Below are positions 3,172 to 17,661 of a stretch of DNA of 64,000 bases, in pieces. Made by a program: the position numbers and the translations under genes. Below the pieces are notes generated by a model. That model ran no database searches, was not told where the DNA came from, and saw only the letters and a program-made list of their open reading frames with translations. Source of the stretch: Candidatus Pacearchaeota archaeon (GTDB lineage Archaea > Nanobdellota > Nanobdellia > Pacearchaeales > GW2011-AR1). The stretch is from the NCBI GenBank assembly GCA_050303855.1, contig JBNLCO010000010.1, forward strand, positions 124,093-188,092, given 5' to 3'. Every line of letters begins with the position of its first letter. The first letter of the stretch is position 1.

Positions 3172-4128
3172 ATGCCAACAAGAAAATCACCAAGAAAAGG
3201 AAGCTTGCAATTTTGGCCTCGAAAGAGGATCAACAAATTTTTGCCTAGAGTTAACTGGAGTGCTATTAATTCTGATAAGAAATTGAAGGGATTTGTTGGA
3301 TATAAGGCAGGGATGGTTTCTGTTGAAGTTAAGGATTTAACTGCCAATTCAATGACTAAAGATAAGAAGATAATTATTCCGGCTACAGTTATTGAATGTC
3401 CTAAGATGAAAATCTTTTCGGTTAGATTCTACAAAAATGGGGTCGTTAAGAAGGATGTTTTAGCTGAACAATTCGACAAGGAACTTAAGAAAAAGGTTAA
3501 GGTTCCAAAAGAGAATAAATTGAAGCTTGATTCTGTAAAAAGTGAGAATTATGATGATGTTTCTGTTATTGCTTATACTGTTGTTAAGAAAACAGGATTG
3601 AAGAAGAAACCAGATATGGCTGAAATTGGTATTTCAGGTTCAAGTGTTGATGAGAAATTAAGTTTTGTTAAAGAGAATTTGAATAAAGAGTTGAGTGTTA
3701 CGGATTTATTCGCTTCAGGAGATTTAGTTGACTTTAGAGGTTTAACTAAAGGTAAAGGTCTTGTTGGTCCTGTAAAGAGATTTGGAATTACATTAAAAGC
3801 TCATAAGTCGGAGAAAGGTGTTAGAAGACCAGGTAATGTTGGTCCGTGGCATCCTGCAAGAGTTACTTTTAGAATCCCTATGGCAGGTCAATTAGGGAAG
3901 TTTACAAGAGTACATTATAATCAAAAAGTTATTGTAACTGGAAATGATGAAGAAGTTAAGAAATCTTTGAAAGCGATAAAGAACTATGGAAATGTTAACA
4001 TGGATTATGTTATTGTTTCTGGTTCAGTTCAAGGTCCAGCAAAGAGACAAGTGTTTATTACTGCTCCTTTGAGAAAAAGTAAAATGTCTGCAAAGAAGAA
4101 TTATGAATTCGGGAGAATATTGAGATAA
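3172..4128 (+). CDS. rpl3: 50S ribosomal protein uL3
   Basis: N-terminus MPTRKSPRKGSLQFWPRKR and the ...GKGLVGPVKRFG...GPWHPARV motifs; first gene of the S10-like cluster. Confidence 0.95.
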   Translation: MPTRKSPRKGSLQFWPRKRINKFLPRVNWSAINSDKKLKGFVGYKAGMVSVEVKDLTANSMTKDKKIIIPATVIECPKMKIFSVRFYKNGVVKKDVLAEQFDKELKKKVKVPKENKLKLDSVKSENYDDVSVIAYTVVKKTGLKKKPDMAEIGISGSSVDEKLSFVKENLNKELSVTDLFASGDLVDFRGLTKGKGLVGPVKRFGITLKAHKSEKGVRRPGNVGPWHPARVTFRIPMAGQLGKFTRVHYNQKVIVTGNDEEVKKSLKAIKNYGNVNMDYVIVSGSVQGPAKRQVFITAPLRKSKMSAKKNYEFGRILR

Positions 4129-4129
4129 A

Positions 4130-4375
4130 ATGGATATTGGAGAATCAATGGCGAAGAGAAAAATGATTGAAGAATTTAAGAAGTTAGAAATTGTAGCAGA
4201 AGCATTTTCTGAGGTTAAGGGGAATGTTGCTAAAGACAAAGATCTTGGGATGAGGATTGATGAAACAACAGAATTTCATTATAATATTAAAACAAATTAT
4301 GAAGAAGCAAAGGGAAAATTCGTTGGAGAAGATGGAATGCAATATGCTTTTGAAATAAGGAGATATAACGATTAA
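4130..4375 (+). CDS. ORFan A (81 aa) inserted between uL3 and uL4; acidic, no family recognised
   Basis: TAA-A-ATG junctions on both sides, identical to genuine r-protein junctions. By my count 18 D/E versus 14 K/R, so it is not r-protein-like. Confidence 0.6.
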   Translation: MDIGESMAKRKMIEEFKKLEIVAEAFSEVKGNVAKDKDLGMRIDETTEFHYNIKTNYEEAKGKFVGEDGMQYAFEIRRYND

Positions 4376-4376
4376 A

Positions 4377-5216
4377 ATGAAAACTAAAACATACGATTTA
4401 ACAGGGAAAGAAAAAGCAGAAATTGCATTACCCAAAGAATTTAGTTCTAAGGTAAGAGAAGATATTGTTTCTAAAGTTCTTGAAGCTGCAAAGAAACATC
4501 AACCTTACTCTCCAAGTCCTGTTGCAGGAAAACAACATTCTGCCAAAGGAAAGATTGTACATAGAAGACATGTTTGGAGAAGTGGTTATGGTAGAGGAGC
4601 ATCAAGAGTACCAAGAAAAATATTCTCACAGAAAGGTTCAAGATTTAATTGGGAAGCTGCAGAAGTTCCATTCGCAAGAGGCGGTATGAGAGCTCACCCT
4701 CCAAAGATAGAACACTTCTTAAAAGAACTTAAGATCAATAAGAAAGAATTAAAGATTGCTTTTGTATCTGCATTGAGTGCAACAGCTTCTGAAAAATATG
4801 TTGTTGATAAATATGCTACAGTAAATAAATTGAATAAAAAAGTGCCATTCATCTTAACTCTTGGAAATACTGAAAACTTGAAAGTTAAAGATTTACTTAA
4901 TGGTTTGAAAGGTATGCTTGGAGAAGAACTTTACAATATTGCAATAAAGAAAAAATCAATTAGGGCTGGAAAAGGAACAATGAGAGGTAGAAAATACAAA
5001 TCAAATGCAGGTATGCTTTTAGTTGTTGGAAAAGATGAAATTGGAAAAGTAAAAACTAAAATGTTTGAAGTTGTTTCGGCTGGAGAACTTGGAGTTACAG
5101 ATCTTGCCCGAGGAGGATTAGGAAGATTAACTGTTTATACTGAAAATTCTGTTAAAGAATTAGAAAATAAGTTTAATGGTAAAACTGAAAAGAAAGTGGA
5201 GGAAAAGAAAAAATGA
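4377..5216 (+). CDS. rpl4: 50S ribosomal protein uL4
   Basis: Contains ...HQPYSPSPVAGKQHSAKGKIVHRRHVWRSGYGRGASRVPRK...; position in the operon. Confidence 0.95.
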   Translation: MKTKTYDLTGKEKAEIALPKEFSSKVREDIVSKVLEAAKKHQPYSPSPVAGKQHSAKGKIVHRRHVWRSGYGRGASRVPRKIFSQKGSRFNWEAAEVPFARGGMRAHPPKIEHFLKELKINKKELKIAFVSALSATASEKYVVDKYATVNKLNKKVPFILTLGNTENLKVKDLLNGLKGMLGEELYNIAIKKKSIRAGKGTMRGRKYKSNAGMLLVVGKDEIGKVKTKMFEVVSAGELGVTDLARGGLGRLTVYTENSVKELENKFNGKTEKKVEEKKK

Positions 5217-5545
5217 ATAGTGTAGAAATTAAAGTTGTTGAAAATTGGGAAAAACCTGAAGTTTTCAGGACTTTAAAAGAAAAAGATTTGATAAGTGATA
5301 AAGAAGTTGTATTTGAATCCTTCAAGTTGAGAGGAGAAGGAACTTCTTTAATTCATACGCTCCAGAGAGTCAAGCCAGGAATTGTGAAGGTTAAAAAATA
5401 TTATTTTGAATCAGGTAAATTGAGCAGTAACGCAGGAGTGGATTATTGGACCAATTCACTGGATATAGGATATAATCCAGAAGCAAAATCAGATCAAATA
5501 CTTTATGATGCAGAAGATAAATTCCTAAGAGAGGCAGGATTATGA
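5213..5545 (+). CDS. ORFan B (110 aa) inserted between uL4 and uL23; no family recognised
   Basis: ATGA start/stop overlaps at both ends (5213-5216 and 5542-5545). GGAGG lies 10 nt upstream of its ATG (5198-5202). Confidence 0.6.
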   Translation: MNSVEIKVVENWEKPEVFRTLKEKDLISDKEVVFESFKLRGEGTSLIHTLQRVKPGIVKVKKYYFESGKLSSNAGVDYWTNSLDIGYNPEAKSDQILYDAEDKFLREAGL

Positions 5546-5778
5546 GACCAATAGCAACTGAAAAAGCAGTAATGAAAATTGAAGCAGAGAATGTAATGAC
5601 CTTTGAATTTGATAAAAGAATGAATAAAGAGGACATTAAGAAAGAAATTGAAGAGCTTTTAGATGTTAAAGTTGATTCGGTTAAAACGCAAATAAGAAAG
5701 AACAAGAAAATTGTTTACGCTAAATTAAATAAGAAGAACCTTGCAATTGATCTTGCAACTAAATTAGGAATGATGTAA
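5542..5778 (+). CDS. rpl23: 50S ribosomal protein uL23
   Basis: 78 aa, MRPIATEKAVMKIEAENVMTFEFDKRMNK...; operon position. Confidence 0.9.
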   Translation: MRPIATEKAVMKIEAENVMTFEFDKRMNKEDIKKEIEELLDVKVDSVKTQIRKNKKIVYAKLNKKNLAIDLATKLGMM

Positions 5779-5779
5779 A

Positions 5780-6478
5780 ATGGGAAAGAGAATAATACAA
5801 CAGGCACGGGGAAAGGGAAGTTCAACTTATAGAGTTAAGAGAAAAGCTTTCAGTCACAAAATCCAATATCCAAGAGGATTAACTGGAGAAGGAAGAATTG
5901 TAAAGTTATTCTTAACTGGTGGACATAGTGCTCCGCTTGCAAAGATAAACTGGTCTGGAGAGAGTTTTTATGTTCCTGCATTCAAAGGAATGGTTCAAGG
6001 AGAGAAGATTAATTTTGATTCAAAAGAAATTGTTAAAGGAAGTATCCTTGAGTTAGGAGATATTCCACTTAAGACAAAGATATTTTGCATTGAATCGAGA
6101 CCTGGAGATGGTGGAAAGTTCATAAAGACTGCAGGAAGTTCTGCAGAAGTTGTTAGAAGGGTCGGCAAAAATGTTCATGTATTAATGCCGTCGAAAAAAG
6201 AAAAACCTTTTAACCCGAAATGTCGGGCTATTATTGGTGAAGCTGCTGGTCATGGTAGAACAGACAAACCAATAATGAAAGCTGGAAAGCAACATCATAT
6301 TAAGAAAGCAAAAAGTAAATTATGGCCAAGAACAGGTGCATTGAAAGTTAATGCTATCGATCATCCTTTCGGTTCAGGTAGAGGAAAGAACCCTAAGAGC
6401 AAGATTGCAAAGAGAAATTCAGCTCCTGGTCAAAAGGTTGGTTTATTGAGACCAAGAAGGACAGGTAAGAGAAAGTAA
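5780..6478 (+). CDS. rpl2: 50S ribosomal protein uL2
   Basis: Contains MGKRIIQQARGKGSSTYR...AIDHPFGSGRGKN... Confidence 0.95.
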   Translation: MGKRIIQQARGKGSSTYRVKRKAFSHKIQYPRGLTGEGRIVKLFLTGGHSAPLAKINWSGESFYVPAFKGMVQGEKINFDSKEIVKGSILELGDIPLKTKIFCIESRPGDGGKFIKTAGSSAEVVRRVGKNVHVLMPSKKEKPFNPKCRAIIGEAAGHGRTDKPIMKAGKQHHIKKAKSKLWPRTGALKVNAIDHPFGSGRGKNPKSKIAKRNSAPGQKVGLLRPRRTGKRK

Positions 6479-6479
6479 A

Positions 6480-6848
6480 ATGGAAATGAAATTACAAACA
6501 ACTGGAATAAAGTATGAAAATCTAGTTGGAAAAGGATTAGAACTTTTTTGTGAAAGTGCGGTCAATAAAGATGAAAATGTTGTGGGAAGGTATCTTCCTG
6601 GAATTGAGGGACAAGAGATAACCTATTTAGGAAATTTAGGACATAGATTCGGAGAAAGAGATTTATTTGGATTTGAAGAAGACAATAAATTGACTGTCCT
6701 TGTTGGAAACATAAAAGACATTACTGGAAACAGGGCAACGTTAAGCACCTTTGTTCAAAGCATTTCCCCAAATTTTTACGGAACTGAAAATTTGAGTGAT
6801 GAGATTTTAAAACAATGCAAAGAGATTTTGTCAGGAGTAAAAGAATAA
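6480..6848 (+). CDS. ORFan C (122 aa) inserted between uL2 and uS19; no family recognised
   Basis: TAA-A-ATG junctions on both sides. Gly/Glu-rich, not basic. Confidence 0.6.
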   Translation: MEMKLQTTGIKYENLVGKGLELFCESAVNKDENVVGRYLPGIEGQEITYLGNLGHRFGERDLFGFEEDNKLTVLVGNIKDITGNRATLSTFVQSISPNFYGTENLSDEILKQCKEILSGVKE

Positions 6849-6849
6849 A

Positions 6850-7254
6850 ATGGTAGATATAGGATCACAAAAGAAACAATTCAAGTATCGAGGCAAAGAT
6901 ATTGAAGAGTTGAAGGCTTTAGATACTCGAGAGGTTGCAAAATACCTTGATTCGAGAGCTAGAAGAACTGTACTTAGAAACTTCCAAGAAATTGAGGATT
7001 TCCTTCAGAGAGCTAAGAGAAAACAATCAAAGAATAAGAAGATTAAAACTCATAAGAGAAAATTGATAGTTGTTCCTCAAATGGTTGGAATGCAAATCCA
7101 AGTACATAACGGAAGAATGTTTATTCCAATTGAGGTTGTCCCGGAGATGATCGGACATTATTTGGGAGAATTTTCATTAACAAGGGCAAAAGCTTCACAT
7201 AGTAAATCAGGAGTTGGTGCTACTAAGGGTAGTAGAGCCAAATCCAAGAAGTAA
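6850..7254 (+). CDS. rps19: 30S ribosomal protein uS19
   Basis: Contains ...IVVPQMVGMQIQVHNGRMFIPIEVVPEMIGHYLGEFSLTR... Confidence 0.95.
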   Translation: MVDIGSQKKQFKYRGKDIEELKALDTREVAKYLDSRARRTVLRNFQEIEDFLQRAKRKQSKNKKIKTHKRKLIVVPQMVGMQIQVHNGRMFIPIEVVPEMIGHYLGEFSLTRAKASHSKSGVGATKGSRAKSKK

Positions 7255-7259
7255 GTAAA

Positions 7260-7871
7260 ATGACAGAAAAACAATACGCTCCAAGTGCTAAAGAAAAGAA
7301 GATGTCTACAAAGAAAGTAGAATCCCCAGTAGCAGAAGCTCCTAAAAAGGTTGAAGCTAAAGAAAATAAAACTGAAGAGAAAAAAGTTGAAGAAAAGAAA
7401 ACAGAAGTAAAGCAACCTGTTAAAGTTACAAAAGTTAAGAAAGATCTTGCTGTAGTTAATGCAAACAATTCAAAAGTTTCATTAAAATATGCAATAAGCA
7501 TTTGTAAATTCATTAAAGGCAAAAGAATTGGCGATGCGATAAGAGATTTAGAAGCAGTTGTTGTTAAGAAAAAGGCAGTTCCAATGACTGGAGAGTATGC
7601 GCATAAGAAAAGTGTAAAGAAATATGCATCAGGTGCTGGAAAATACCCTGTTAATGCTGCAAAGGCTTTCCTTGTGTTGGTTAAAAGCCTTTTAGGAAAT
7701 GCTAATGCAAATGACATAAATGAACCTGTAATCACTGAATGTATTGCAAACAAAGCCCCCAAACCAATGGGAAGATTTGGAAGATGGGAAAGAAAAAGAT
7801 GCCACATCAAATTGGTTGCAAGAGAAATTAAAGTTAAAGAGAATAAAGCTAAGACAGAGGAAAAGAAATAA
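7260..7871 (+). CDS. rpl22: 50S ribosomal protein uL22 with an N-terminal Lys/Glu-rich extension of about 60 aa
   Basis: The core ...VSLKYAISICKFIKGKRIGDAIRDLEAVV... is preceded by MTEKQYAPSAKEKKMSTKKVESPVAEAPKKVEAKENKTEEKKVEEKKTEVKQ. Confidence 0.9.
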   Translation: MTEKQYAPSAKEKKMSTKKVESPVAEAPKKVEAKENKTEEKKVEEKKTEVKQPVKVTKVKKDLAVVNANNSKVSLKYAISICKFIKGKRIGDAIRDLEAVVVKKKAVPMTGEYAHKKSVKKYASGAGKYPVNAAKAFLVLVKSLLGNANANDINEPVITECIANKAPKPMGRFGRWERKRCHIKLVAREIKVKENKAKTEEKK

Positions 7872-7872
7872 A

Positions 7873-8565
7873 ATGGAAGAAAAACAAACTGTAAAATTCA
7901 AGAAGGAAGACTTTGCTATAAAGGAAATCATAAGAAAGACAATTGGAAAGGGAAAGATGAGCAGAGTTAGAATTGAATATACTCCGGTTGGAGAAAAAGT
8001 AATAATCTCCACAGATAAACCAGGTTTGGTTATTGGAAGGGGTGGAGAGAGTTTGAACGAATTAAGTGATATGCTTAGAAAGAATTTCAAATTCCAAAAT
8101 TTACATATTGAAATTGAAGAAATAAAAGAACCTGAATTTGACTCTCAAACTATTGCAGATGAGATTGCTTTAGGTTTAGAGAGAGCTGGACCATTAAAGT
8201 TCAAGGTTATTGCTTACAGAACACTTGAGAAAGTGATGAAAGCGGGAGCATTAGGTTGTGAAATAAGATTAAGCGGAAAACTTCCAAGTTCAAGAGCTAA
8301 GACATGGAGATTCGCTCAAGGATATTTAAAGAAAACAGGAGACTCTGCAAAGGTTGTAAGTCGTGCTCAAGCAAGAGCTGAGACTAAGCCGGGAACTGTG
8401 GGAGTTAAGGTTAGTATATTATCACCGCATGCAATATTGAAAGATAGAATAAAGATCAACGAAGATTTGATAAACCAGTTGAAAGAAAACGCTGAAAAAT
8501 TAAATGAAGTTCCAGAGAAGAAAACTAAGAAAAAAGCTAAGACTGCTAAGGAGAGTAAAAAATGA
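7873..8565 (+). CDS. rps3: 30S ribosomal protein uS3
   Basis: The track ORF starts at 7744, inside uL22. The in-frame ATG at 7873 (TAA-A-ATG junction) gives MEEKQTVKFKKEDFAIKEIIRK... with the KH-domain motif LVIGRGGESL. Confidence 0.9.
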   Translation: MEEKQTVKFKKEDFAIKEIIRKTIGKGKMSRVRIEYTPVGEKVIISTDKPGLVIGRGGESLNELSDMLRKNFKFQNLHIEIEEIKEPEFDSQTIADEIALGLERAGPLKFKVIAYRTLEKVMKAGALGCEIRLSGKLPSSRAKTWRFAQGYLKKTGDSAKVVSRAQARAETKPGTVGVKVSILSPHAILKDRIKINEDLINQLKENAEKLNEVPEKKTKKKAKTAKESKK

Positions 8566-8756
8566 AACACTCAGAAGTAAAGAAATTAAGTAAGACAGAC
8601 AGAGATAAGAAATTAAAAGAACTAAAGTTGGAATTAGTTAAAGAAAACGTATCAAAGCAAGGCGGAAATAAATCTGCTAAAATAAGAAAAATAATCGCAA
8701 GAATACACACACTCAACAACATGGAAAATAAACCCAAGGAGTTGAATAACAAATAA
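8562..8756 (+). CDS. rpl29: 50S ribosomal protein uL29
   Basis: 64 aa, MKHSEVKKLSKTDRDKKLKELKLELVK...; ATGA overlap with uS3. Confidence 0.9.
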   Translation: MKHSEVKKLSKTDRDKKLKELKLELVKENVSKQGGNKSAKIRKIIARIHTLNNMENKPKELNNK

Positions 8757-8760
8757 AACA

Positions 8761-9060
8761 ATGGAAATAGATCCAAAAACAGGATTGCCAGTTCAGGCAA
8801 TGGAGTGGGAAGACCTTGCAAAGGGTTCCCAAAAAATACGGGTAACGACCGATAAAAAAAGATACGGAAAGATCGTTACTCTAGTGAGTGGTTTCGACAA
8901 AGGAATCGACATAAAGAAAACCGCAAAGGCATTGAAGAATGAACTTGCGTGTGGCGGGACCTTTAAGGACGATGCAGTTGAACTGCAAGGAGACCACACA
9001 AAGAAAGTAAAGCAAGTCCTTGTAAAAATGGGATTTGACGAAAGCTCCATAGAAGACTGA
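8761..9060 (+). CDS. translation initiation factor SUI1 (aSUI1/eIF1 family)
   Basis: 99 aa, ...IRVTTDKKRYGKIVTLVSGFD...LKNELACGGTFKDDAVELQGDH... is the typical SUI1 core. Confidence 0.9.
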   Translation: MEIDPKTGLPVQAMEWEDLAKGSQKIRVTTDKKRYGKIVTLVSGFDKGIDIKKTAKALKNELACGGTFKDDAVELQGDHTKKVKQVLVKMGFDESSIED

Positions 9061-9078
9061 AGAGGTGAAAAATAAAAA

Positions 9079-9423
9079 ATGGAAAGTAAGAAAATGAAAA
9101 AAACAGAAGTAAAAGAATCAAAAATAGTTGGAACTGAAAAGAGTATAAACCCAAGAGGAAAGATCTTCGAGGGAGTTGTAACAGCAAAGTTCCACAAGAG
9201 AATAACAATCGAATTCGAAAGAATGGTTTATATTAGAAAGTATGAAAGATATGCAAAGTCGAAGACAAAAATCCATGCAAGACTCCCAGTTTCAATGGAA
9301 AACGAAGTTAATGTTGGAGATTTGATAAGAGTTCAAGAGTGTAGACCTTTAAGTAAGATAATCCATTTCATCGTGGTTAAGAAATTAAAAGATGCTTCAG
9401 AAATTTTAGGAGGAAAGAAATAA
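9079..9423 (+). CDS. rps17: 30S ribosomal protein uS17
   Basis: Contains ...RGKIFEGVVTAKFHKRITIEFERMVYIRKYERYAKSKTKIHA...VGDLIRVQECRPLSK... Confidence 0.92.
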   Translation: MESKKMKKTEVKESKIVGTEKSINPRGKIFEGVVTAKFHKRITIEFERMVYIRKYERYAKSKTKIHARLPVSMENEVNVGDLIRVQECRPLSKIIHFIVVKKLKDASEILGGKK

Positions 9424-9424
9424 G

Positions 9425-9826
9425 ATGAAAGCAATAAGTTCAAGAGCTACAGAAGGATTGAATTTGGGGGCAATAATGGTTGCTGCAGACAATAGTGGGG
9501 CTAAAGTTGTAAAATTAGTTTCGGTTAAGAAAGCTAAAGCTAAGAAGGGAAAACAAGTTGCTGGAAAGATTGCTGACTGGGTTAAAGTATCCGTAAGAAA
9601 AGGTGTTCCAGATATGAAAGGAAAAGTGTTTGATGCAGTAATAGTTAGACAGAAAAAACCATGGAGAAGGAATACGGGGGAGAGAGTTGCATTTGAAGAT
9701 AACGCTGTTGCAATCTTGAAAGACGATAAAGGTAATCCGAAAGGAACTCAAATTAAAGGACCAATTGCAAGGGAGGTTCAGGAGCGATGGCAATCTGTTG
9801 CTAAAATAGCTCAAACTGTTTATTAA
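9425..9826 (+). CDS. rpl14: 50S ribosomal protein uL14
   Basis: Contains ...MVAADNSGAKVVKLVSV...DAVIVRQKKPWRR... Confidence 0.95.
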   Translation: MKAISSRATEGLNLGAIMVAADNSGAKVVKLVSVKKAKAKKGKQVAGKIADWVKVSVRKGVPDMKGKVFDAVIVRQKKPWRRNTGERVAFEDNAVAILKDDKGNPKGTQIKGPIAREVQERWQSVAKIAQTVY

Positions 9827-9827
9827 A

Positions 9828-10325
9828 ATGAAGAACAAATTTTCAACAAAATGGAAGGCAAGTAAGAGACCTTCAAAGCAGAGAAAGTATTTAGCAAATG
9901 CTCCTTTACATATAAAGGCAAAACTAGTTAGCGTAAATCTTGCAAAACCTCTTAGAAAGACTTCAGAAAAGAGAAATGTTCCAGTAAGAAAGGATGACAA
10001 GGTAAAGATTATGAGAGGTAAATTCAAAGGGAAAGAAGGAAAGGTTTTGAGTGTAAGTACAAAATATTCAAAAGTAATTGTCGAAGGAATAACAATCAAG
10101 AAAATGGATGGTTCACAAGCAAATGTTCCATTAAAACCTTCAAACTTACAGATAATTGAGATGACAGATAGAAAACAAAAAGCAGTTTCTGAGAAGAAGA
10201 CTGAAGTAAAAAAAAGAGTCTCTGAAACAAAGTCTCAGGACTCATCCGCTGTAGCGACGTCGAACGAAACACCTAAAAAGGAAGTTAAAGAAGTAAAAGA
10301 TAAAGGTAAGGAGAATAAAAAATGA
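9828..10325 (+). CDS. rpl24: 50S ribosomal protein uL24 with a C-terminal K/E/S-rich tail
   Basis: KOW motif VRKDDKVKIMRGKFKGKEGKVLSV. The tail is ...EKKTEVKKRVSETKSQDSSAVATSNETPKKEVKEVKDKGKENKK. Confidence 0.92.
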   Translation: MKNKFSTKWKASKRPSKQRKYLANAPLHIKAKLVSVNLAKPLRKTSEKRNVPVRKDDKVKIMRGKFKGKEGKVLSVSTKYSKVIVEGITIKKMDGSQANVPLKPSNLQIIEMTDRKQKAVSEKKTEVKKRVSETKSQDSSAVATSNETPKKEVKEVKDKGKENKK

Positions 10326-10972
10326 AACATCTAAAGAGAGAAGTAGTACCAAAGAGTTGGCCAGTTCCAAGGAAAGGAACAACTTTTGTAGTTAGATCTA
10401 ACTCAAATCCTGAAAAGGGTGTTCCAATGTTGATATTCCTTAGAGATATGGTAAAGGTTTCTCAAAATAGAAAAGAAGTGAAGAGAGCTTTAGTTAACAA
10501 GAATATTCTAATTAATGGAAAATACGTTTCAGATGAGAAAAACGCAGTTGTATTACTTGATGTTGTTACAATTGTTCCATCAAAGAAATATTTCGTTCTT
10601 GATTTAACAGAAAACGGAAAGTTCGTTGCTAGAGAAATATCTGAGAAAGAGTCAATGAATAAAGTTTCAAAGATTACCGGAAAGAAATCTCTAAGAGGGA
10701 AGAAAACTCAAATTAATTTGATAGACGGAAGAAATTTCATCTCAAATGTAAAATGTGTAGTAGGAGATTCTGTTTTGATTGATTTCAAAGGAAATAAAAT
10801 TGAGAAATGTGTTCCATTGAAAGATAAAGCGAAAGTAATTATTTTTGCAGGAAAACACGCAGGAATGAAAGGAGAAATAGAAAAGATTGACGAGGAAAGA
10901 AAGATGGCTTCAGTGTCTTCAAATGGAGAAAAAATAAATGTTCTTGTTGAACAACTAATGGTAACAGAATAA
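10322..10972 (+). CDS. rps4e: 30S ribosomal protein eS4
   Basis: MKHLKREVVPKSWPVPRKGTTFVVRS...; an archaeal/eukaryotic-specific r-protein. Confidence 0.93.
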   Translation: MKHLKREVVPKSWPVPRKGTTFVVRSNSNPEKGVPMLIFLRDMVKVSQNRKEVKRALVNKNILINGKYVSDEKNAVVLLDVVTIVPSKKYFVLDLTENGKFVAREISEKESMNKVSKITGKKSLRGKKTQINLIDGRNFISNVKCVVGDSVLIDFKGNKIEKCVPLKDKAKVIIFAGKHAGMKGEIEKIDEERKMASVSSNGEKINVLVEQLMVTE

Positions 10973-10973
10973 A

Positions 10974-11492
10974 ATGGCAGAAGAAAAAACTGAAAAAGTA
11001 AACCCTATGAATGAGGTTAAAATTGAAAAGGTAGTTTTAAGCATAGGTGGGACTGGAGATTATTTGGATAGAGGTTACAGATTGTTGAAATATCTTACAG
11101 GAAAGAATCCTATGAAGACAAAGGCTCAGAAAAGAATTCCAGCATGGGGGGTTAGACCTGGTTTGGAAGTTGGAGCAACAGTAACATTAAGGAAAGATGC
11201 TATTGATTTTTTGAAGAGAATGTTGGTTACAATAGATAATAACTTGAAAAAGAAGCAAGTAAGTGAAAATAGTCTTTCATTTGGAATAAAAGAGTATATT
11301 GAAATACCTGATGTAGAATATCAAAGGGATATCGGTATAATGGGGTTCGATGTAACAATAACATTTAAGAGATCAGGAAGAAGAGTTAAATTAAGAAAGA
11401 TAAAATCTGGAAAAGTTGGAAAAAAACAGATTATAAAGAAGGAAGAAATAGTAAAATATATGGAGGATAATTTCGGAACGGAATTTATATAA
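10974..11492 (+). CDS. rpl5: 50S ribosomal protein uL5
   Basis: Contains ...NPMNEVKIEKVVLSIGGTG...FGIKEYIEIPDVEYQRDIGIMGFDVTI... Confidence 0.93.
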   Translation: MAEEKTEKVNPMNEVKIEKVVLSIGGTGDYLDRGYRLLKYLTGKNPMKTKAQKRIPAWGVRPGLEVGATVTLRKDAIDFLKRMLVTIDNNLKKKQVSENSLSFGIKEYIEIPDVEYQRDIGIMGFDVTITFKRSGRRVKLRKIKSGKVGKKQIIKKEEIVKYMEDNFGTEFI

Positions 11493-11493
11493 A

Positions 11494-11760
11494 ATGGCAA
11501 ATAAAATAACTTTAAAGAATAGGGAGAAATTGAGGGAAGAGCTTGAGAAGTTAGTTGTACAAGTTGATGAGATAAACGACTTCATGGGGCAGTTACCTCA
11601 TAACAATCATGGGCAGGCAACTAGGAGCTTAAACCCTAAGAAAGGTGAATATTTAAGTCACTTTGATGGAAATAGCGAAGGCATAGTTGGAAAATATCGT
11701 TCAAAAAATGGAGAGGTTTATACTATTAGCGTATCAAAAGAATACGGAGGTGGAAAATAA
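11494..11760 (+). CDS. ORFan D (88 aa) inserted between uL5 and uS14; no family recognised
   Basis: TAA-A-ATG junctions on both sides. N-terminal helical K/E segment, then PHNNHGQ and a C-terminal EYGGGK. Confidence 0.6.
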   Translation: MANKITLKNREKLREELEKLVVQVDEINDFMGQLPHNNHGQATRSLNPKKGEYLSHFDGNSEGIVGKYRSKNGEVYTISVSKEYGGGK

Positions 11761-11761
11761 A

Positions 11762-11992
11762 ATGACAGCAAGCAATTACGAAAAGATGTTGAAGCAATTA
11801 AGAAGCAAACCTGCAAAGATGCAGAGATACTTGAAGCACAATAAGCCAAAAACTAGAACTACTGGTAAGGCTTTGAGAAGATGTGAACAGACGGGACAAT
11901 TCGGAGGACACATAAAAATGTACGGATTGAACTTATGTAGACAGGCATTCAGAGAAATAGCGGAGGAATTAGGATTTAAGAAATACTCTTAA
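11762..11992 (+). CDS. rps14: 30S ribosomal protein uS14, a variant lacking two of the four zinc-ribbon cysteines
   Basis: The track ORF starts at 11687, inside ORFan D. The ATG at 11762 gives MTASNYEKMLKQLRSKPAK...RRCEQTGQFGGHIKMYGLNLCRQAFREIAEELGFKKYS. Confidence 0.88.
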   Translation: MTASNYEKMLKQLRSKPAKMQRYLKHNKPKTRTTGKALRRCEQTGQFGGHIKMYGLNLCRQAFREIAEELGFKKYS

Positions 11993-12006
11993 ATTGCAAA
12001 AGTAAA

Positions 12007-12387
12007 ATGAGTCACGATGTTGTAGCAGATGGATTGAATATGTTGAGAAATGCAGCTGTAGCTGGAAAAGAAACCGTGAAGATAAATAGAATCTCAAATG
12101 TTTTGATAGAAGTTCTTAAAATAATGAAGCAAGATGGAGCAATAAAGAAATATAAAATAGATTCTGAAGATAAATCTCTTACAGTTACAATAGACAAATT
12201 AGATGAATGTAAGGCAATAAAACCAAGATTCACTTGTGATGTTTCGCAAATAGAGAACTATAGAAGAAGATATCTTCCAGCAAGAGATGTTGGAACAATG
12301 ATACTTTCTACAAACAAAGGGTTAATGACTCACAAAGAGGCAACAGAAGAAAATATTGGAGGATGCCTAATTGCATATTTCTATTAA
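12007..12387 (+). CDS. rps8: 30S ribosomal protein uS8
   Basis: MSHDVVADGLNMLRNAAVAGKETV...GGCLIAYFY. Confidence 0.93.
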   Translation: MSHDVVADGLNMLRNAAVAGKETVKINRISNVLIEVLKIMKQDGAIKKYKIDSEDKSLTVTIDKLDECKAIKPRFTCDVSQIENYRRRYLPARDVGTMILSTNKGLMTHKEATEENIGGCLIAYFY

Positions 12388-12388
12388 A

Positions 12389-12931
12389 ATGAAAAAACCT
12401 TTATCAAAAATAATTGAAATTCCTGAAGGAGTGGAAGTTGCTCTAGATGGAAGAGATGTTAAGGTAAAAGGCCCAGAAGGAGAGATAACTAAAGATTTTG
12501 ATTTTGGGACTTTAGATATTGTTATCAAAGATGGAAAGATAGAATTAAGCCATAAAAGTGCAACAAAGACTGAAAAGAGAACAATGAATACTTTTGCAGC
12601 GCATATACTAAACATGATTAAAGGTGTTCAAGAGAAATTCGAATATACGCTTAAGGTTGCTTCAAGCCACTTCCCTATGACTGTGAAGGTAGAAGGAAAC
12701 ATTGCAACAATAAAGAATTATTACGGAGAAAAAACTGATAGAAAAACAAAAATTCCGAAAGGAGTTGAGGTAGAAGTTAACAAAGATTCAATTGTTGTTA
12801 AGTCTGTTGATAAAGAACTTGCAGGTCAGGCTGCAGCAAATTTCGAGAACGCTACAAAAGTTAGAAATAGGGATAGAAGAATTTTCCAAGATGGAATTTA
12901 CATAACTAAAAAACACGATAAAGCTATTTAA
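12389..12931 (+). CDS. rpl6: 50S ribosomal protein uL6
   Basis: The track start at 12371 is a TTG inside uS8. The ATG at 12389 (TAA-A-ATG) gives MKKPLSKIIEIPEGVEVALDGRDVKVKGPEGE... Confidence 0.92.
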   Translation: MKKPLSKIIEIPEGVEVALDGRDVKVKGPEGEITKDFDFGTLDIVIKDGKIELSHKSATKTEKRTMNTFAAHILNMIKGVQEKFEYTLKVASSHFPMTVKVEGNIATIKNYYGEKTDRKTKIPKGVEVEVNKDSIVVKSVDKELAGQAAANFENATKVRNRDRRIFQDGIYITKKHDKAI

Positions 12932-12936
12932 TTAAA

Positions 12937-13341
12937 ATGACCGAAAAGAAAAAACCAAATTTCAAGAGAAAGGACTCACACAAGTATTCTAAGCTTGGAA
13001 AGTCAAGAAAGAATAAACAGAAGTGGAAGAAACCTACTGGAAGAGATAACAAAATGCGTGAGAAGAAGAAGGGTCATCCAGCGGTTGTTTCAATAGGGTA
13101 TAAGACAAACACTTCAATAAGAGGAAAAGTGGAAGAAAAGAAACCAGTTTATGTTTACAACATCAAGGATTTGGAAAATGTAAACACAAATGAAATTGTA
13201 ATTGTTGGAAATGTTGGGATGAAGAAGAAAGTAGAAATTACAAAGGTTGCAAAAGAAAAGAAAATCAAAATAAAAAACATTAATGAGAAAAAATTAATGA
13301 AGAAAGTTAAGAAAAAAACAACTAAGGAGAGTAAAAAATGA
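12937..13341 (+). CDS. rpl32e: 50S ribosomal protein eL32
   Basis: Contains ...KQKWKKPTGRDNKMREKKKGHPAVVSIGYK... Confidence 0.9.
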   Translation: MTEKKKPNFKRKDSHKYSKLGKSRKNKQKWKKPTGRDNKMREKKKGHPAVVSIGYKTNTSIRGKVEEKKPVYVYNIKDLENVNTNEIVIVGNVGMKKKVEITKVAKEKKIKIKNINEKKLMKKVKKKTTKESKK

Positions 13342-13805
13342 ATTTGAGATCAAAGAAGGAGCTAGCTGCAAGAACATTCAAGGTTGGTAAAGAAAGAATT
13401 ACTTTCATTAAAGAAAGATTGGATGAAGTAAAAGAAGCTATAACTAAACAAGATATGATTGGTTTGGAGAAAGACGGAGCAATAAAGGTAAAGGAAGTAA
13501 GTGGGAGAAAGAAGGTACATACTGTAAGAAATAGAAGCCCAGGGAACGTAAGAAAGAAGGTTAACACTAGAAAAAGGGACTATGTTATCATGACTAGAAA
13601 GCTTAGACAACACGTTAGACACCTTAAATCCAATGGAGAATTAAGCCCTGAAGAAGTTAAAGAAATAAGAAAAAGAATAAGAAACAAAGGATTTAAGAGT
13701 AAAGCACATATGAAAGAACAGATAGCAACAAAGAATTATTCCTCTGTTCAAGTATCAGGAAAATCAAAAAATAAAAAAACTAAATCAAGTAAAAAGAAAA
13801 AATGA
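13338..13805 (+). CDS. rpl19e: 50S ribosomal protein eL19
   Basis: MNLRSKKELAARTFKVGKERITF...; ATGA overlaps at both ends. Confidence 0.92.
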   Translation: MNLRSKKELAARTFKVGKERITFIKERLDEVKEAITKQDMIGLEKDGAIKVKEVSGRKKVHTVRNRSPGNVRKKVNTRKRDYVIMTRKLRQHVRHLKSNGELSPEEVKEIRKRIRNKGFKSKAHMKEQIATKNYSSVQVSGKSKNKKTKSSKKKK

Positions 13806-14290
13806 AAGTACAAAAACGAAGAAGAAGAGAAAATAAGACAGACTATCTTAAGAGAATGAAGCTTCTTAAGAGCGCAAAGCCAAGAGTAGTATTCAGAAAA
13901 ACAAACAAATATGTTATTGCGCAATATGTTGTTAGTGATGAAGCTAAAGATAAAGTTGTATTTGGAGTAAGTTCAAAAGATTTGTTAAAGAAAGGTTGGG
14001 ATGAAAATGCTAAAGGATCTTTGAAGTCAATACCTGCAACATATTTAACAGGGTATTATGCTGGTAAAAAAATCTTGAAAGAAGGGCTTGAAACTCCAAT
14101 AGTGGATTTAGGTATGATAAAAACTTTACATAAAACAAAGGTTTTTGCTTTTATCAAAGGTTTAATTGATTCTGGAGTAGAAATTGGATCAAAAGAAGAA
14201 GCATTCCCTGAAGAAGAAAGAATAAATGGAGAAAGTTTAAAGAACAAGGTAGACATTCAAAAAATTAAATCAAGTTTAGATAAAGAATAA
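13802..14290 (+). CDS. rpl18: 50S ribosomal protein uL18
   Basis: MKVQKRRRRENKTDYLKRMKLLKSAKPRVVFRKTNKYVIAQYV... Confidence 0.92.
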   Translation: MKVQKRRRRENKTDYLKRMKLLKSAKPRVVFRKTNKYVIAQYVVSDEAKDKVVFGVSSKDLLKKGWDENAKGSLKSIPATYLTGYYAGKKILKEGLETPIVDLGMIKTLHKTKVFAFIKGLIDSGVEIGSKEEAFPEEERINGESLKNKVDIQKIKSSLDKE

Positions 14291-14291
14291 A

Positions 14292-15158
14292 ATGACCGAA
14301 AAAGAACTTAATAAAAAAACTGCAGAAGCATACAAAGATAATTTGAATACTGACGCGGAAGAAGCTACAGAGAAAATGATAAAGGATGAAGAAAATGATG
14401 AATATGCAGAAGTTCCTGAAGAAGTTTTAGATGAGAAAGAACTTAAGGAATTAAAAGAGATGGAAAAGGACACTAAGAAGCCTGGAAGGGACAGAAGAGA
14501 TAGCGCTCCTGCAGAAGCATGGTCTCCTATTACAAAGTTAGGGGTTGCTGTAAAAGAAGGAACAATCAAAGATATTGATGAAATTATTGAGAAAAAAATG
14601 AAGATCCTTGAACCAGAAATAGTTGATAAATTAATACCTGTTGAATCAGATTTAATTTCTATAGGGCAATCTAAAGGTAAGTTTGGTGGTGGAAAAAGGA
14701 GAGCATGGAGACAGACTCAAAGAAAAAAGAAGGAAGGAAATGTTGCTACATTCTCAGCTATGGCCGTTATTGGCGATGGTAATGGTCATGTGGGTATTGG
14801 AACAGGAAAGTCTACAGAGACTCTTCCAGCAAGAGATAAAGCTACAAGAAAAGCTAAAATTAATGTAATAAAAATTATTAGGGGGGATGGAAGTTTCGAT
14901 TCTGTTGGAGGAGGAAATACAAGTATTCCATTCAAAGTTTCAGGTCAAGCAGGAAGTGTAAGAATTACTTTAATGCCTGCTGCTCCAGGTACAGGTCTTG
15001 TTGCAGGGGATGAAATGAAGAAGATACTTAGAATTGCAGGAATAAAAGATATATACTCAAAAACAGAAGGAAAATTGTCTACAAAGTTTAACCTTGCAAA
15101 AGCAACAATAGATGCACTTAAGAAAACAAATCCTTTGTATAAGAGGGCAAAACAATAA
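14292..15158 (+). CDS. rps5: 30S ribosomal protein uS5 with an acidic N-terminal extension of about 75 aa
   Basis: Core ...AWSPITKLGVAVKEGTI...FSAMAVIGDGNGHVGIGTGKS..., preceded by MTEKELNKKTAEAYKDNLNTDAEEATEKMIKDEENDEYAEVPEEVLDEKELKELKEMEKD. Confidence 0.92.
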   Translation: MTEKELNKKTAEAYKDNLNTDAEEATEKMIKDEENDEYAEVPEEVLDEKELKELKEMEKDTKKPGRDRRDSAPAEAWSPITKLGVAVKEGTIKDIDEIIEKKMKILEPEIVDKLIPVESDLISIGQSKGKFGGGKRRAWRQTQRKKKEGNVATFSAMAVIGDGNGHVGIGTGKSTETLPARDKATRKAKINVIKIIRGDGSFDSVGGGNTSIPFKVSGQAGSVRITLMPAAPGTGLVAGDEMKKILRIAGIKDIYSKTEGKLSTKFNLAKATIDALKKTNPLYKRAKQ

Positions 15159-15159
15159 A

Positions 15160-15522
15160 ATGAAAATCGCAGTAATAAGGATAAAAGGAATGGTTGGACT
15201 AAAAACAGACATAGCTGAGACTTTGGATAGATTAAGATTGAGAAGAAAATATGCGTGTGTGGTTATAGAAGATACACCAGAGAATTTAGGAATGATAAAG
15301 AAGGTTGGAGACTTTGTTGCACATGGCCCTATTGATGAAAAAACCTACAAAGAATTAGTTGATAAGAGAGGAAAGAAAGATTCTGAAGGCAAACTTAAAC
15401 CATTCTTTAGATTGCACCCTGCTAGAGGCGGAATGGAAACTAAAAAACACTTTGGAGTGGGTAAAGGAGTTTTAGGAAATAATAAAGATAAAATAAATGA
15501 ATTAATAGGGAGGATGTTGTGA
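15160..15522 (+). CDS. rpl30: 50S ribosomal protein uL30
   Basis: The track ORF starts at 15112, inside uS5. The ATG at 15160 (TAA-A-ATG) gives MKIAVIRIKGMVGLKTDIAETLDRLRLRRKYACVVI... Confidence 0.9.
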   Translation: MKIAVIRIKGMVGLKTDIAETLDRLRLRRKYACVVIEDTPENLGMIKKVGDFVAHGPIDEKTYKELVDKRGKKDSEGKLKPFFRLHPARGGMETKKHFGVGKGVLGNNKDKINELIGRML

Positions 15523-15523
15523 A

Positions 15524-15742
15524 GTGTCCGAGTACTATAAGGGCAAAAAAATTAATGGCGAGCTTATTTGCGGAGTGAGTGATCAGGGAAACTACAATCC
15601 TATAATTACAACCGTTTCAAAGTCAGAGGACGAGAATTTAAGGAATACTTATGTTCTCAAAGAAGACATCCTTGAGTTTGTCAAGGCCGATCCGCTAACA
15701 GACAAACAAGCTAGAAATTACATAAACAAATCAAAAAGATAA
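15524..15742 (+). CDS. ORFan E (72 aa, GTG start) inserted between uL30 and uL15; no family recognised
   Basis: TGA-A-GTG junction upstream and TAA-A-ATG downstream. Sequence MSEYYKGKKINGELICGVSDQGNYNPIITTVSK... Confidence 0.5.
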   Translation: MSEYYKGKKINGELICGVSDQGNYNPIITTVSKSEDENLRNTYVLKEDILEFVKADPLTDKQARNYINKSKR

Positions 15743-15743
15743 A

Positions 15744-16235
15744 ATGGCGCAAAGAACACATAAAAGAAAAAAATCAACAAGATACCATGGAAGGAATATG
15801 GGTACTTCTAGCAATGGTTCTAGAAAAACACATAGAAGTTCAGGTAATAAAGGTGGAACGGGATTATCTGGTACTGGAAAGAGAGCAGACCATAAGAAAA
15901 CATTGATAAACAAATTATACGGAAATAATTACTTTGGGAAACAAGGAATTACCTCTAAGAAGACTCAGAGAGATAAGAGATTAAGAATAACTCTTTCTCA
16001 AATAATGAATAACCTTGAAAGCTATGGAAAAAAGACTGCAAAAGGTTGGGAAATTGATTTAAGCAAGTACAAAATACTTGGTAAAATTGAAGTTAAGGAA
16101 AAATTAATAATAAAGGCTCTTGAAGCATCAAAAGGAGCAATTGAATCGGTTAAGAAATCTGGTGGAGAGATAGTTTTGCCTGTTCCTAAAAAGAAGGTTG
16201 AAGTCAAAAGTTCCGACGATGGCAAAGAAGAATAG
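15744..16235 (+). CDS. rpl15: 50S ribosomal protein uL15
   Basis: MAQRTHKRKKSTRYHGRNMGTSSNGSRKTHRSSGNKGGTGLSGTGKRADHKK... Confidence 0.92.
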   Translation: MAQRTHKRKKSTRYHGRNMGTSSNGSRKTHRSSGNKGGTGLSGTGKRADHKKTLINKLYGNNYFGKQGITSKKTQRDKRLRITLSQIMNNLESYGKKTAKGWEIDLSKYKILGKIEVKEKLIIKALEASKGAIESVKKSGGEIVLPVPKKKVEVKSSDDGKEE

Positions 16236-16244
16236 TTTTAAAAA
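16236..16244 (+). promoter_or_regulatory. TATA-like box (TTTTAAAAA) about 27 nt upstream of the secY ATG
   Basis: It lies in the only sizeable spacer (31 nt) at the end of the r-protein string. The geometry matches the other leaderless promoters in the window. Confidence 0.5.
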
Positions 16245-16266
16245 CACTCTTTCTTAATTCTATACT

Positions 16267-17661
16267 ATGGCAAATCTTACGAAGATATTCTCTTTAATTC
16301 CTGAAGTTAGGAATCCAGATGAAAAGAAGCTAGCTTTTAATGTGAAGCTTAAGTGGACACTTGTTGTATTGATAGGATTTTTTATTTTAGCAAACATACC
16401 TTTGTTTGGTTTGACGAATAATGCTTTGGAGAGATTCCAATATTTAGCTATAATTTTAGGGACAGATTTTGGTTCAATAATTTCTTTAGGTATTGGTCCG
16501 ATCGTTATGGCTTCGATTATATTGCAGTTGTTAACGGGAGCGGGTATTTTAAACATAAATACAAACACTGCAGAAGGAAAGAAGTTTTTCCAAGGAGTTC
16601 AGAAATTAATGGTGTTCTTCTTTATATTATTTGAAGCCACAGTTTATGTATTAATGAAAGGTCTTGAAGCTGCCCCTGGACTTGCAGGAATAGTTATCTT
16701 CCAACTTATAATTGGAGGTATTGCGATTTACTATATGAATGAACTTTGTGAAAAATGGGGATTCGGTTCGGGAGTTAGTTTGTTCATTGCAGCGGGAGTA
16801 TCTTGGAATCTATTTACTGGTGCATTCCAGTTCATAAATCAGCAAGGTAGAAACTGTCTTGCAGATTTCTCGGGAACTGCATGTTCAGGAAAGATTTTCG
16901 TATTAATACAATCAATTGTGAATAAGTACCCTGTTGAATTTATGTCCGCACTTGGGGCTATTGTAGCAACGGTTGCTATATTTTTGTTGGTAGTTTGGGC
17001 CCAATCGCTTAAGGTAGAAATTCCTTTGAGTTTTGGAAGAATTAGAGGATATGGTGTAAAGTGGCCTTTGAGTTTCTTCTACGCTTCAGTTATCCCTGTT
17101 ATTTTAACTGCTGCTTTAGTTGCAAACATACAACTATTTGGAGGGCTTTTGGAGAATTGGAGAGGTCATGCAACATTCCTAGGTCATTTCGTAAATGGTC
17201 AGGCAGTGTCCGGTTTAGGGTTCTGGCTTGGGCATACGAATTTGCTTGAATTGGCAATAAGAGGAGGATTCTTACCTAGGTTCTTAGTCCAAGGATTGAC
17301 GCACATAATATTCTATACTGGACTTGCAATGTTGTTCTCGATATTTTGGGTTAAAAGTTCTGGAATGGACTCAAAAGCTCAAGCTCAAAAGATATCTTCA
17401 TCAGGATTACAAGTTGCAGGTTTCAGACAAGATAACAGAGTTTTGGAAAGCATATTAGATAGATATATAATGCCTTTAACAGTTATGGGAGGAGCGGCAA
17501 TAGGATTGCTAGCTGCTTTAACAGACTTGTTAGGTGCTATGGTTTCAGGAACAGCGATACTTTTGGTTATCATGATAATGTTCCAATTCTATCAGAGTAT
17601 TGCACAACAACACATGACAGATATGAATCCTGCTATGAGGAAGTTTATGGGAAATGCATAA
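16267..17661 (+). CDS. secY: preprotein translocase subunit SecY
   Basis: 464 aa, 10-TM-like profile, ...LGIGPIVMASIILQLL...; canonical position after uL15. Confidence 0.95.
   Translation: MANLTKIFSLIPEVRNPDEKKLAFNVKLKWTLVVLIGFFILANIPLFGLTNNALERFQYLAIILGTDFGSIISLGIGPIVMASIILQLLTGAGILNINTNTAEGKKFFQGVQKLMVFFFILFEATVYVLMKGLEAAPGLAGIVIFQLIIGGIAIYYMNELCEKWGFGSGVSLFIAAGVSWNLFTGAFQFINQQGRNCLADFSGTACSGKIFVLIQSIVNKYPVEFMSALGAIVATVAIFLLVVWAQSLKVEIPLSFGRIRGYGVKWPLSFFYASVIPVILTAALVANIQLFGGLLENWRGHATFLGHFVNGQAVSGLGFWLGHTNLLELAIRGGFLPRFLVQGLTHIIFYTGLAMLFSIFWVKSSGMDSKAQAQKISSSGLQVAGFRQDNRVLESILDRYIMPLTVMGGAAIGLLAALTDLLGAMVSGTAILLVIMIMFQFYQSIAQQHMTDMNPAMRKFMGNA

Follow-up and report, generated by a model that had tools for sequence, protein, structure and literature searches.

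A rare small-protein gene, probably an accessory passenger, between uL5 and uS14 in the ribosomal superoperon of a Pacearchaeota archaeon

The ribosomal superoperon is normally counted among the most rigid prokaryotic gene arrays. In the 64,000-nucleotide stretch of Candidatus Pacearchaeota archaeon analyzed here (assembly GCA_050303855.1, contig JBNLCO010000010.1, positions 124,093 to 188,092, referred to as the window; G+C of ca. 33%), an 88-aa open reading frame, ORF D, lies between the genes for uL5 and uS14. The questions raised by this locus are whether ORF D is a gene, to what kind of protein it corresponds, and whether it has anything to do with the ribosome or with the downstream uS14, which has lost two of its zinc-ligand cysteines. 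The superoperon lies on the forward strand in the order uL3, uL4, uL23, uL2, uS19, uL22, uS3, uL29, SUI1, uS17, uL14, uL24, eS4, uL5, ORF D, uS14, uS8, uL6, eL32, eL19, uL18, uS5, uL30, uL15, and SecY, with SUI1 between uL29 and uS17 and an EMC3-like gene accompanying SecY after uL15. The nearest relatives are MAGs labeled Pacearchaeota, Woesearchaeota, or Nanoarchaeota, all of them DPANN.

Table 1. Features of ORF D, its neighbors, and the loci compared (window coordinates unless a locus is named)
Feature	Location	Strand	Basis
ORF D CDS, 88 aa plus TAA	11494..11760	+	sequence and ORF list
uL5, upstream neighbor	10974..11492	+	Pfam Ribosomal_L5 and L5_C
uS14, downstream neighbor, 76 aa	11762..11992	+	Pfam and NCBIfam S14 matches
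Upstream junction TAA-A-ATG (uL5 stop, 1 base, ORF D start)	11490..11496	+	
Downstream junction TAA-A-ATG (ORF D stop, 1 base, uS14 start)	11758..11764	+	
GGAGGTG, uS14 Shine-Dalgarno inside last ORF D codons	11746..11752	+	anti-SD match
N-terminal amphipathic helix, codons 2-32	11497..11589	+	DSSP on AF2 model, H2-32
Loop PHNNHG, codons 35-40, family motif P-H-x-(R/N)-G	11596..11613	+	alignment
Four-stranded antiparallel beta-meander, codons 41-81	11614..11736	+	AF2 model
Two-Cys uS14 loci	window 11762..11992; L004:4556-4786; L055:816-1046		
Unannotated ORF, uL3-uL4, 81 aa	4130..4375	+	
Unannotated ORF, uL4-uL23, 110 aa	5213..5545	+	
Unannotated ORF, uL2-uS19, 122 aa	6480..6848	+	
Unannotated ORF, uL30-uL15, 72 aa	15524..15742	+	

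The initial annotation had described an 88-aa frame flanked on both sides by TAA-A-ATG, and the sequence and the ORF list bear this out exactly. The uL5 stop (TAA, 11490-11492) is followed by a lone A at 11493 and the ATG of ORF D at 11494, while the ORF D stop (TAA, 11758-11760) is separated from the uS14 ATG at 11762 by another lone A at 11761. No rival ORF of more than 64 aa crosses the interval in any other frame or strand. Because the stop-codon density in the operon is 0.059 to 0.078 per codon, the chance of an 88-codon open frame exactly filling the gap between uL5 and uS14 is only ca. 1e-3 to 4e-3. The identical protein is encoded in two independent assemblies, GCA_050302495.1 (contig JBNLBP010000001.1) and Logan SRR36185838. 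Compared with its orthologue at locus L055, ORF D gave a pN of 0.31, well under a pS that was saturated at 0.83, and it is therefore under purifying selection. The dN values for the same pair of genomes were 0.40 for ORF D, 0.16 for uL5, and 0.08 for uS14; that is, ORF D evolves 2.5 to 5 times faster than its flanking genes.

The term ORFan, used for this frame at the outset, does not strictly apply. A word-index search retrieved the ORF D protein alone, but an exhaustive HMMER scan of 1.84 billion cluster representatives found 14 homologues of 54 to 92 aa, with E values from 7e-19 to 1e-3. Two members were added later, P0016, the sole new protein among the eight returned by a word-index search with the family profile, and one at locus L070, which came from a metagenome scan with a four-sequence alignment. 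With ca. 15 clusters among the 1.84 billion representatives, the family is rare. Pfam and NCBIfam gave nothing below an E value of 0.07 for ORF D or any of 15 members, and PHROGs and PADLOC gave no consistent family match for the same set, the best isolated match being to a JetA domain in one member (E 1.2e-4). A scan of viral contigs revealed none that encodes a member, and a profile search against PDB sequences returned designed coiled coils that match the helix alone, which we consider noise. We found neither an ORF D paralogue nor an ABC/CARDB operon (a second genomic context of the family, see below) elsewhere in the window.

In the family alignment, conservation is concentrated in three patterns, R-x-x-L-R-x-x-L-x-x-I-V in the N-terminal part, P-H-x-R/N-G-x-A-x-R-S-L-x-P-x-x-G-E-Y-I-x-H in the middle, and Y-R-x-x-x-G-x-x-Y-x-I-x-I toward the C terminus. 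R14 of the N-terminal helix is nearly invariant, and so, or fully invariant, are the sheet columns L46, Y53, Y68, G73, and Y76. The His/Asn patch PHNNHGQ pointed out in the initial annotation is real in part: P35, H36, and G40 are conserved, whereas NNH is not and corresponds to a one-residue insertion common only to ORF D and P0002, the L055 orthologue and the member closest to ORF D. Substitutions of H36 and H56 coincide in two members, P0002 (K36 and Y56), which has neither conserved His, and P0014, with Y at both positions. The pI of the family ranges from 5.7 to 10.2, the low end including P0002, and several members are basic (pI 9 to 10); among the neighboring r-proteins, nearly all have a pI of 9.4 to 11, with uS8 (8.7) and uS5 (9.25) as exceptions. 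The ORF D sequence contains no signal peptide or membrane segment.

The AF2 model of ORF D, built on a shallow alignment, had a pLDDT of 90.9 and a pTM of 0.72, and that of P0008, which is encoded in another genomic context, a pLDDT of 93.5 with the same architecture; the two runs used different first sequences. The K/E-rich helix expected at the N terminus is present in the model from residue 2 to 32 (H4-33 in P0008), with the hydrophobic residues L13, L17, L20, V24, I27, and M31 at a spacing of 3 to 4. The strands of the meander comprise residues 41-47, 52-57, 63-69, and 75-81 and carry the conserved R44-S45-L46, P48, G51-E52-Y53, H56, Y68-R69, G73, and Y76. Foldseek found no fold relative in the PDB (best E 0.29) or in BFVD (best E 0.08). 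Ribosomal and hibernation proteins in the PDB showed no similarity to the model, and the known r-protein families gave neither a profile match nor a ribosomal-chain fold match. Levivirus coat proteins and Pur-alpha were among the weak structural matches; like the former and the PUR/Whirly repeats, which are beta-sheet modules that bind RNA or ssDNA, the model exposes aromatic and basic residues and has a four-stranded antiparallel sheet on a helix.

All these data leave a chance ORF in a noncoding spacer with a practically negligible probability. The missing database name and the failure of the Pfam, NCBIfam, and word-index searches would suit such an origin, but not the 16 homologues with conserved motifs, the confident fold reproduced across two members, the pN well under pS, or the exact fit of the frame to its gap; nor did Rfam give anything meaningful on positions 10900-12100. 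ORF D is a genuine protein-coding gene of a rare, previously undescribed small-protein family.

The end of this gene has to be read together with the start of the next one. The 3' end of ORF D (tac GGA GGT Gga aaa taa) contains GGAGGTG, a 7-nt match to GGAGGTGA located 9 nt before the uS14 ATG, which ties with the uS17 site as the longest anti-SD match in the operon. The Gly-rich C terminus (EYGGGK) highlighted in the initial annotation does exist, but residues 81-88 have a mean pLDDT of 67 and are not conserved in the family; the glycines are there because their codons are the Shine-Dalgarno sequence of uS14, and, judged from its codons, this C terminus results from the ribosome-binding site embedded there and is no feature of the protein. 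The L055 and L070 members have equivalent sites in their nonconserved tails (AAGGAG and GGGAGG, respectively), while genomes in which uL5 directly abuts uS14 mostly have no SD at that junction. Upstream of the ORF D start we found no SD-like motif, which, together with the TAA-A-ATG arrangement, fits coupling by termination-reinitiation. Throughout the window operon (3172..16267), SD-like motifs precede only about half of the gene starts, with strong ones before uS17 (GAGGTGA) and uS14 (GGAGGTG), and at many junctions there is only TAAAATG or an ATGA overlap, which suggests termination-reinitiation.

The neighborhood with an altered uS14 had raised the idea, put forward as speculation, of a functional link between both genes. 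The uS14 of the window keeps two of the four zinc-ligand cysteines, C41 and C60 (CEQTGQ...CRQAF versus CERCGR...CRHCF in relatives), a loss that stands up against 50 relatives. The two-Cys form (CE[QE][TS]xQ...CRQ[AT]F) is common to the window, L055, and L004, whose uS14 proteins are 88% and 83% identical to that of the window, respectively, and was found in 0 of 47 other archaeal relatives; therefore, it is a trait of that small clade. In L055, an ORF D orthologue (52% identity) occupies the same position beside the two-Cys uS14. L004, however, has the two-Cys uS14 with a 57-nt spacer after uL5 and no family member within 4 kb on either side, while L070 carries a member at the same uL5-uS14 junction beside a four-Cys uS14. 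At L056 and L071 the member is located between uL14 and uL24; the uS14 downstream is four-Cys in the former, and the contig of the latter stops before uS14. Thus, conservation in a close relative is found, as the proposed link would have it, but the co-occurrence of the gene with the zinc-ligand loss breaks in both directions, and the presence of one does not covary with the other. The co-occurrence is limited to two sister genomes (the window and L055) and is explained by shared ancestry.

That ORF D compensates for the lost zinc ligands, e.g., as a chaperone or structural substitute, is accordingly a highly improbable reading that can be set aside. It would account for the gene being directly upstream of a two-Cys uS14 in both the window and its closest relative, and the family does have a possible His/Glu/His cluster. 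Nevertheless, L004 does without the gene, L070 and L056 have it with an intact uS14, most family members are not adjacent to uS14, and the L055 orthologue lacks both conserved His residues, which argues against a zinc-related role. As a separate observation, the uS14 proteins of these DPANN lineages have an N-terminal extension of ca. 30 aa that is missing in the Methanobrevibacter uS14 (alignment from residue 32).

To place the family in its genomic surroundings, we examined the contexts in 13 lineages, most of the contigs being short and the contexts incomplete. Three lineages (window, L055, and L070) have the gene between uL5 and uS14 and two (L056 and L071) between uL14 and uL24, those of L055, L056, L070, and L071 with coupling-type junctions of the same style as ORF D. 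In L072 the member comes directly after eS8e and TFB. Another four lineages (P0004, P0007, P0008, and P0016) have it in a MacB-type ABC/CARDB operon with the order ABC ATPase, small membrane protein, family member, secreted CARDB/NPCBM-like protein, HTH proteins, and FtsX/MacB permeases; the small membrane protein upstream is not conserved across lineages. Among the remaining members, P0005 is located between a Nudix-like gene and thioredoxin, P0011 has intergenic spacers on both sides, and P0013 heads a series of four unknown genes. We recovered 52 genome_contigs loci with uL5, of which ca. 35 are close relatives (uL5 58 to 75% identical to that of the window), and in none of these 52 was a family member present in the 4 kb flanking uL5 on each side. 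In the ABC ATPase gene upstream of P0016 (L068:3-926), a sequence that by eye resembles the C-terminal portion of an intein (...VYDLTVPEASNFIANGFIVHNS and then T) precedes the Walker-type ATPase sequence.

The family tree and the host tree are in conflict. In the former, the L070 member groups with P0006 (uL14-uL24) and P0004 (CARDB context) at 47 to 50% identity, compared with 35% to the window protein, and P0003 (uL14-uL24) groups with the window pair. In the latter, the window and L070 belong to different clades, the other members of which do not have the gene. This conflict is more easily reconciled with repeated relocation or transfer than with purely vertical descent, although the family tree rests on ca. 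80 columns and is not robust, so that independent insertions are inseparable from ancestral presence with many losses. The family may, tentatively, have moved repeatedly between tightly coupled operons. ORF D begins with codons similar to those at the start of uL5 and uS14. A 16-nt direct repeat (TGGcAAATAAAATaAC and TGGaAAATAAAATgAC, identical at 14 of 16 nt) that flanks ORF D was considered as a target-site duplication and rejected as chance level, because the DNA is AT rich, TAAAATG occurs at every junction, and ca. 2 such pairs are expected per 1.2 kb by our estimate.

ORF D is not alone in interrupting the superoperon. We mapped all gaps of at least 150 nt between r-protein genes that contained ORFs in the fetched loci, and found them at almost every r-protein junction and in ca. 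20 of 37 Pacearchaeota-like genomes. They were present at uS14-uS8 in 8 of 53 cases, at uS17-uL14 in 7 of 47, at uL14-uL24 in 7 of 50, and at uL22-uS3 in 5 of 31; L004 and L026 had six each, and the genome of the window had five. The ca. 50 inserted ORFs, 40 to 215 aa long in loci L003-L035, L056, L070, and L071, are almost all mutually unrelated by BLASTP and the family HMM, and hmmsearch --max detected no hidden divergent ORF D relative below an E value of 0.02 among those at uL14-uL24 or elsewhere. In a sample of 20, 17 had no Pfam match and three were nucleotide hydrolases (HD, NT5C, and MazG). The other four inserted ORFs of the window (Table 1), three of them acidic (pI 4.9 to 5.5), had no Pfam match, and the ORFs inserted in the operons of relatives included no homologue of them. 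The ribosomal superoperon in this DPANN clade is a general landing site for small accessory genes, and with inserted ORFs at nearly every junction, ORF D is one case of a clade-wide habit.

Since unrelated ORFs occupy the same positions, nucleotide hydrolases included, location alone says little about function, and this weighs on the idea that ORF D is a lineage-specific ribosome-associated factor (accessory r-protein, assembly or hibernation factor) that stays in the superoperon because it acts on the ribosome. We consider this rather unlikely, even though five independent lineages have the gene between r-protein genes, at two junctions and with tight coupling, and one more directly downstream of eS8e and TFB. 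A beta-sheet with conserved Arg, Tyr, and His residues would be well suited to bind RNA, and the basic pI of several members points the same way. However, at least four lineages carry the gene in the ABC/CARDB envelope operon with no translation genes adjoining, it is missing near uL5 in the ca. 35 close relatives, the pI falls to 5.7 with the closest orthologue at the low end, the rate of evolution exceeds that of the flanking genes severalfold, and the fold resembles no ribosomal or hibernation protein in the PDB. The enrichment in the superoperon (5 of 13 lineages, with a sixth after eS8e-TFB) could nonetheless reflect a translation-related role, beyond operon permissiveness. The wider proposal that this family, and perhaps many other inserted ORFs, act as ribosome-binding or ribosome-modulating factors specific to their lineages seems to us unlikely, slightly more so than the narrower one.

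A selfish or mobile cassette, i.e., a solitary toxin or an addiction- or homing-type gene that persists between essential genes, is still less probable. The patchy distribution, the use of the same two junctions in unrelated host clades, and the constant embedding without spacers, which makes deletion risk polar effects on essential genes, would be expected of such an element. There is also a resemblance to small RNase toxins in the helix plus small sheet with conserved Glu, Arg, His, and Tyr. Specifically, the RelE/ParE/YoeB toxins share with ORF D a size of ca. 80 to 95 aa, an N-terminal helix followed by a small antiparallel sheet, these conserved residues, a patchy distribution, and genes that overlap their neighbors. 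Unlike them, ORF D has one long helix in place of a helical hairpin and no Pfam or PADLOC match, and neither the fold nor the profile of RelE/ParE was recovered. It also lacks an antitoxin-like partner: in the five r-operon contexts the neighbors are r-protein genes, with no adjacent small antitoxin gene and no conserved small partner. An isolated JetA-domain match in a single member does not amount to a consistent PADLOC or PHROGs assignment, no viral contig encodes the family, and the flanking repeat is at chance level. As for a homing endonuclease, 80 aa are too few for a known one with a DNA-binding domain, and the search for an HNH or GIY-YIG motif or fold, or a corresponding Pfam or PHROGs match, was negative; this assignment fails because the model shows four strands after a helix and the HNNH string is not conserved.

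In our opinion, ORF D is probably an accessory passenger gene, translationally coupled to its neighbors, and neither a ribosomal protein nor a partner of uS14. The view of the initial annotation, a lineage-restricted gene tightly coupled to uL5 and uS14, was right in this respect. A core ribosomal component is unlikely given the sporadic presence, the pI range of 5.7 to 10.2, the ca. 15 clusters, and a dN above those of uL5 and uS14. Under the passenger interpretation, the family would consist of cytoplasmic proteins of ca. 75 to 95 aa from Pacearchaeota/Woesearchaeota-like DPANN, with a 30-residue amphipathic helix followed by a beta-meander. Having neither promoter nor spacer of its own, ORF D would be transcribed with the superoperon and translated by termination-reinitiation after uL5 at TAA-A-ATG, and its nonconserved 3' tail would supply the GGAGGTG that keeps uS14 translated. 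Residence in this operon would provide high, growth-rate-coupled expression. The conservation pattern and the predicted fold suggest a small soluble binding module, in which the helix would pack on the sheet and, being longer than it, leave an overhang for dimerization or partner binding. His36, Arg44, Glu52, Tyr53, His56, Tyr68, Arg69, and Tyr76 cluster on the sheet and loop of the model and may form a metal, nucleic acid, or peptide site.

Nonribosomal passengers of archaeal r-protein operons include aIF1/SUI1, RNase P Rpp29, SecY, and adenylate and cytidylate kinases. ORF D resembles them in being inserted among r-protein genes in the same orientation and with coupling-type junctions, in its cotranscription and translational coupling (predicted from sequence for ORF D), and, in the interpretation favored here, in not being a ribosome component. 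It differs in that those passengers either are conserved widely or can be assigned to known families, whereas the ORF D family is rare, unannotated, and restricted to a few lineages, and uses at least two different junctions; moreover, insertions are frequent in the DPANN clade of the window, not exceptional. An Hsp20 gene inside the S10-spc cluster of Thor- and Odinarchaeota, a single insertion in Asgard r-protein clusters, has been described as unusual (PMC10833476). Our literature search on small-gene insertion in DPANN r-protein operons found nothing specific. The family is new and, within the known theme of passengers in the r-protein operon, represents a variant of unusual mobility.

What looked like an ORFan now belongs to a defined family of small proteins, for which a fold is predicted with confidence and no relatives are known. 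In contrast to the view of a rigid operon, that of this DPANN clade hosts variable small accessory genes with the coupling kept intact. This is relevant to genome annotation, in which the inserted superoperon genes are unnamed, to phylogenomics, which relies on the synteny of the superoperon, and to gene flow, with the question of how symbionts with reduced genomes gain new genes and express them. Should any of the inserted proteins act on the ribosome, they would represent a new class of lineage-specific translation factors. The superoperon of ultrasmall symbionts would then contain, in place of inert passengers, a fast-evolving accessory layer of translation modifiers that might serve, e.g., in hibernation, host dependence, or conflict with viruses.

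The junctions around uS14 have other occupants as well. Two Aenigmatarchaeota (L052:2071-2619 and L054:4512-5057) have at uL5-uS14, the same junction used by ORF D, a gene for a 182-aa HD-domain YfbR-like 5'-deoxynucleotidase. Several lineages have there a conserved spacer of 57 to 102 nt (L004:4490-4555, L014:4490-4597, and L034) that includes an SD-like GGAG and encodes a basic micro-ORF of ca. 19 aa, the stop of which overlaps the uS14 ATG; the peptides are MTANQRFSIIRNKPRRYFK, MKANQRFSLIQIKKRSKFK, and ...MNQRFSFIRIKYGVKFK, and they could represent a micro-protein or a leader element. The possibility that the 57-nt spacer of L004 is a remnant of an ORF D deletion was rejected, since the spacer and its micro-ORF are also found in the distant L014 and L034. 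Finally, the uS14-uS8 junction hosts at least two or three further recurrent small families: one of 99 to 104 aa ending in ...Y+xINRAxNAI (L070:1249-1548 and L019:4732-5046), one of 54 to 82 aa with CPNPGDFE (L023:4761-5009 and L035:4739-4903), and one of ca. 136 aa starting with KKVNSLEELN (L004:4788-5198 and L021:4649-5062).
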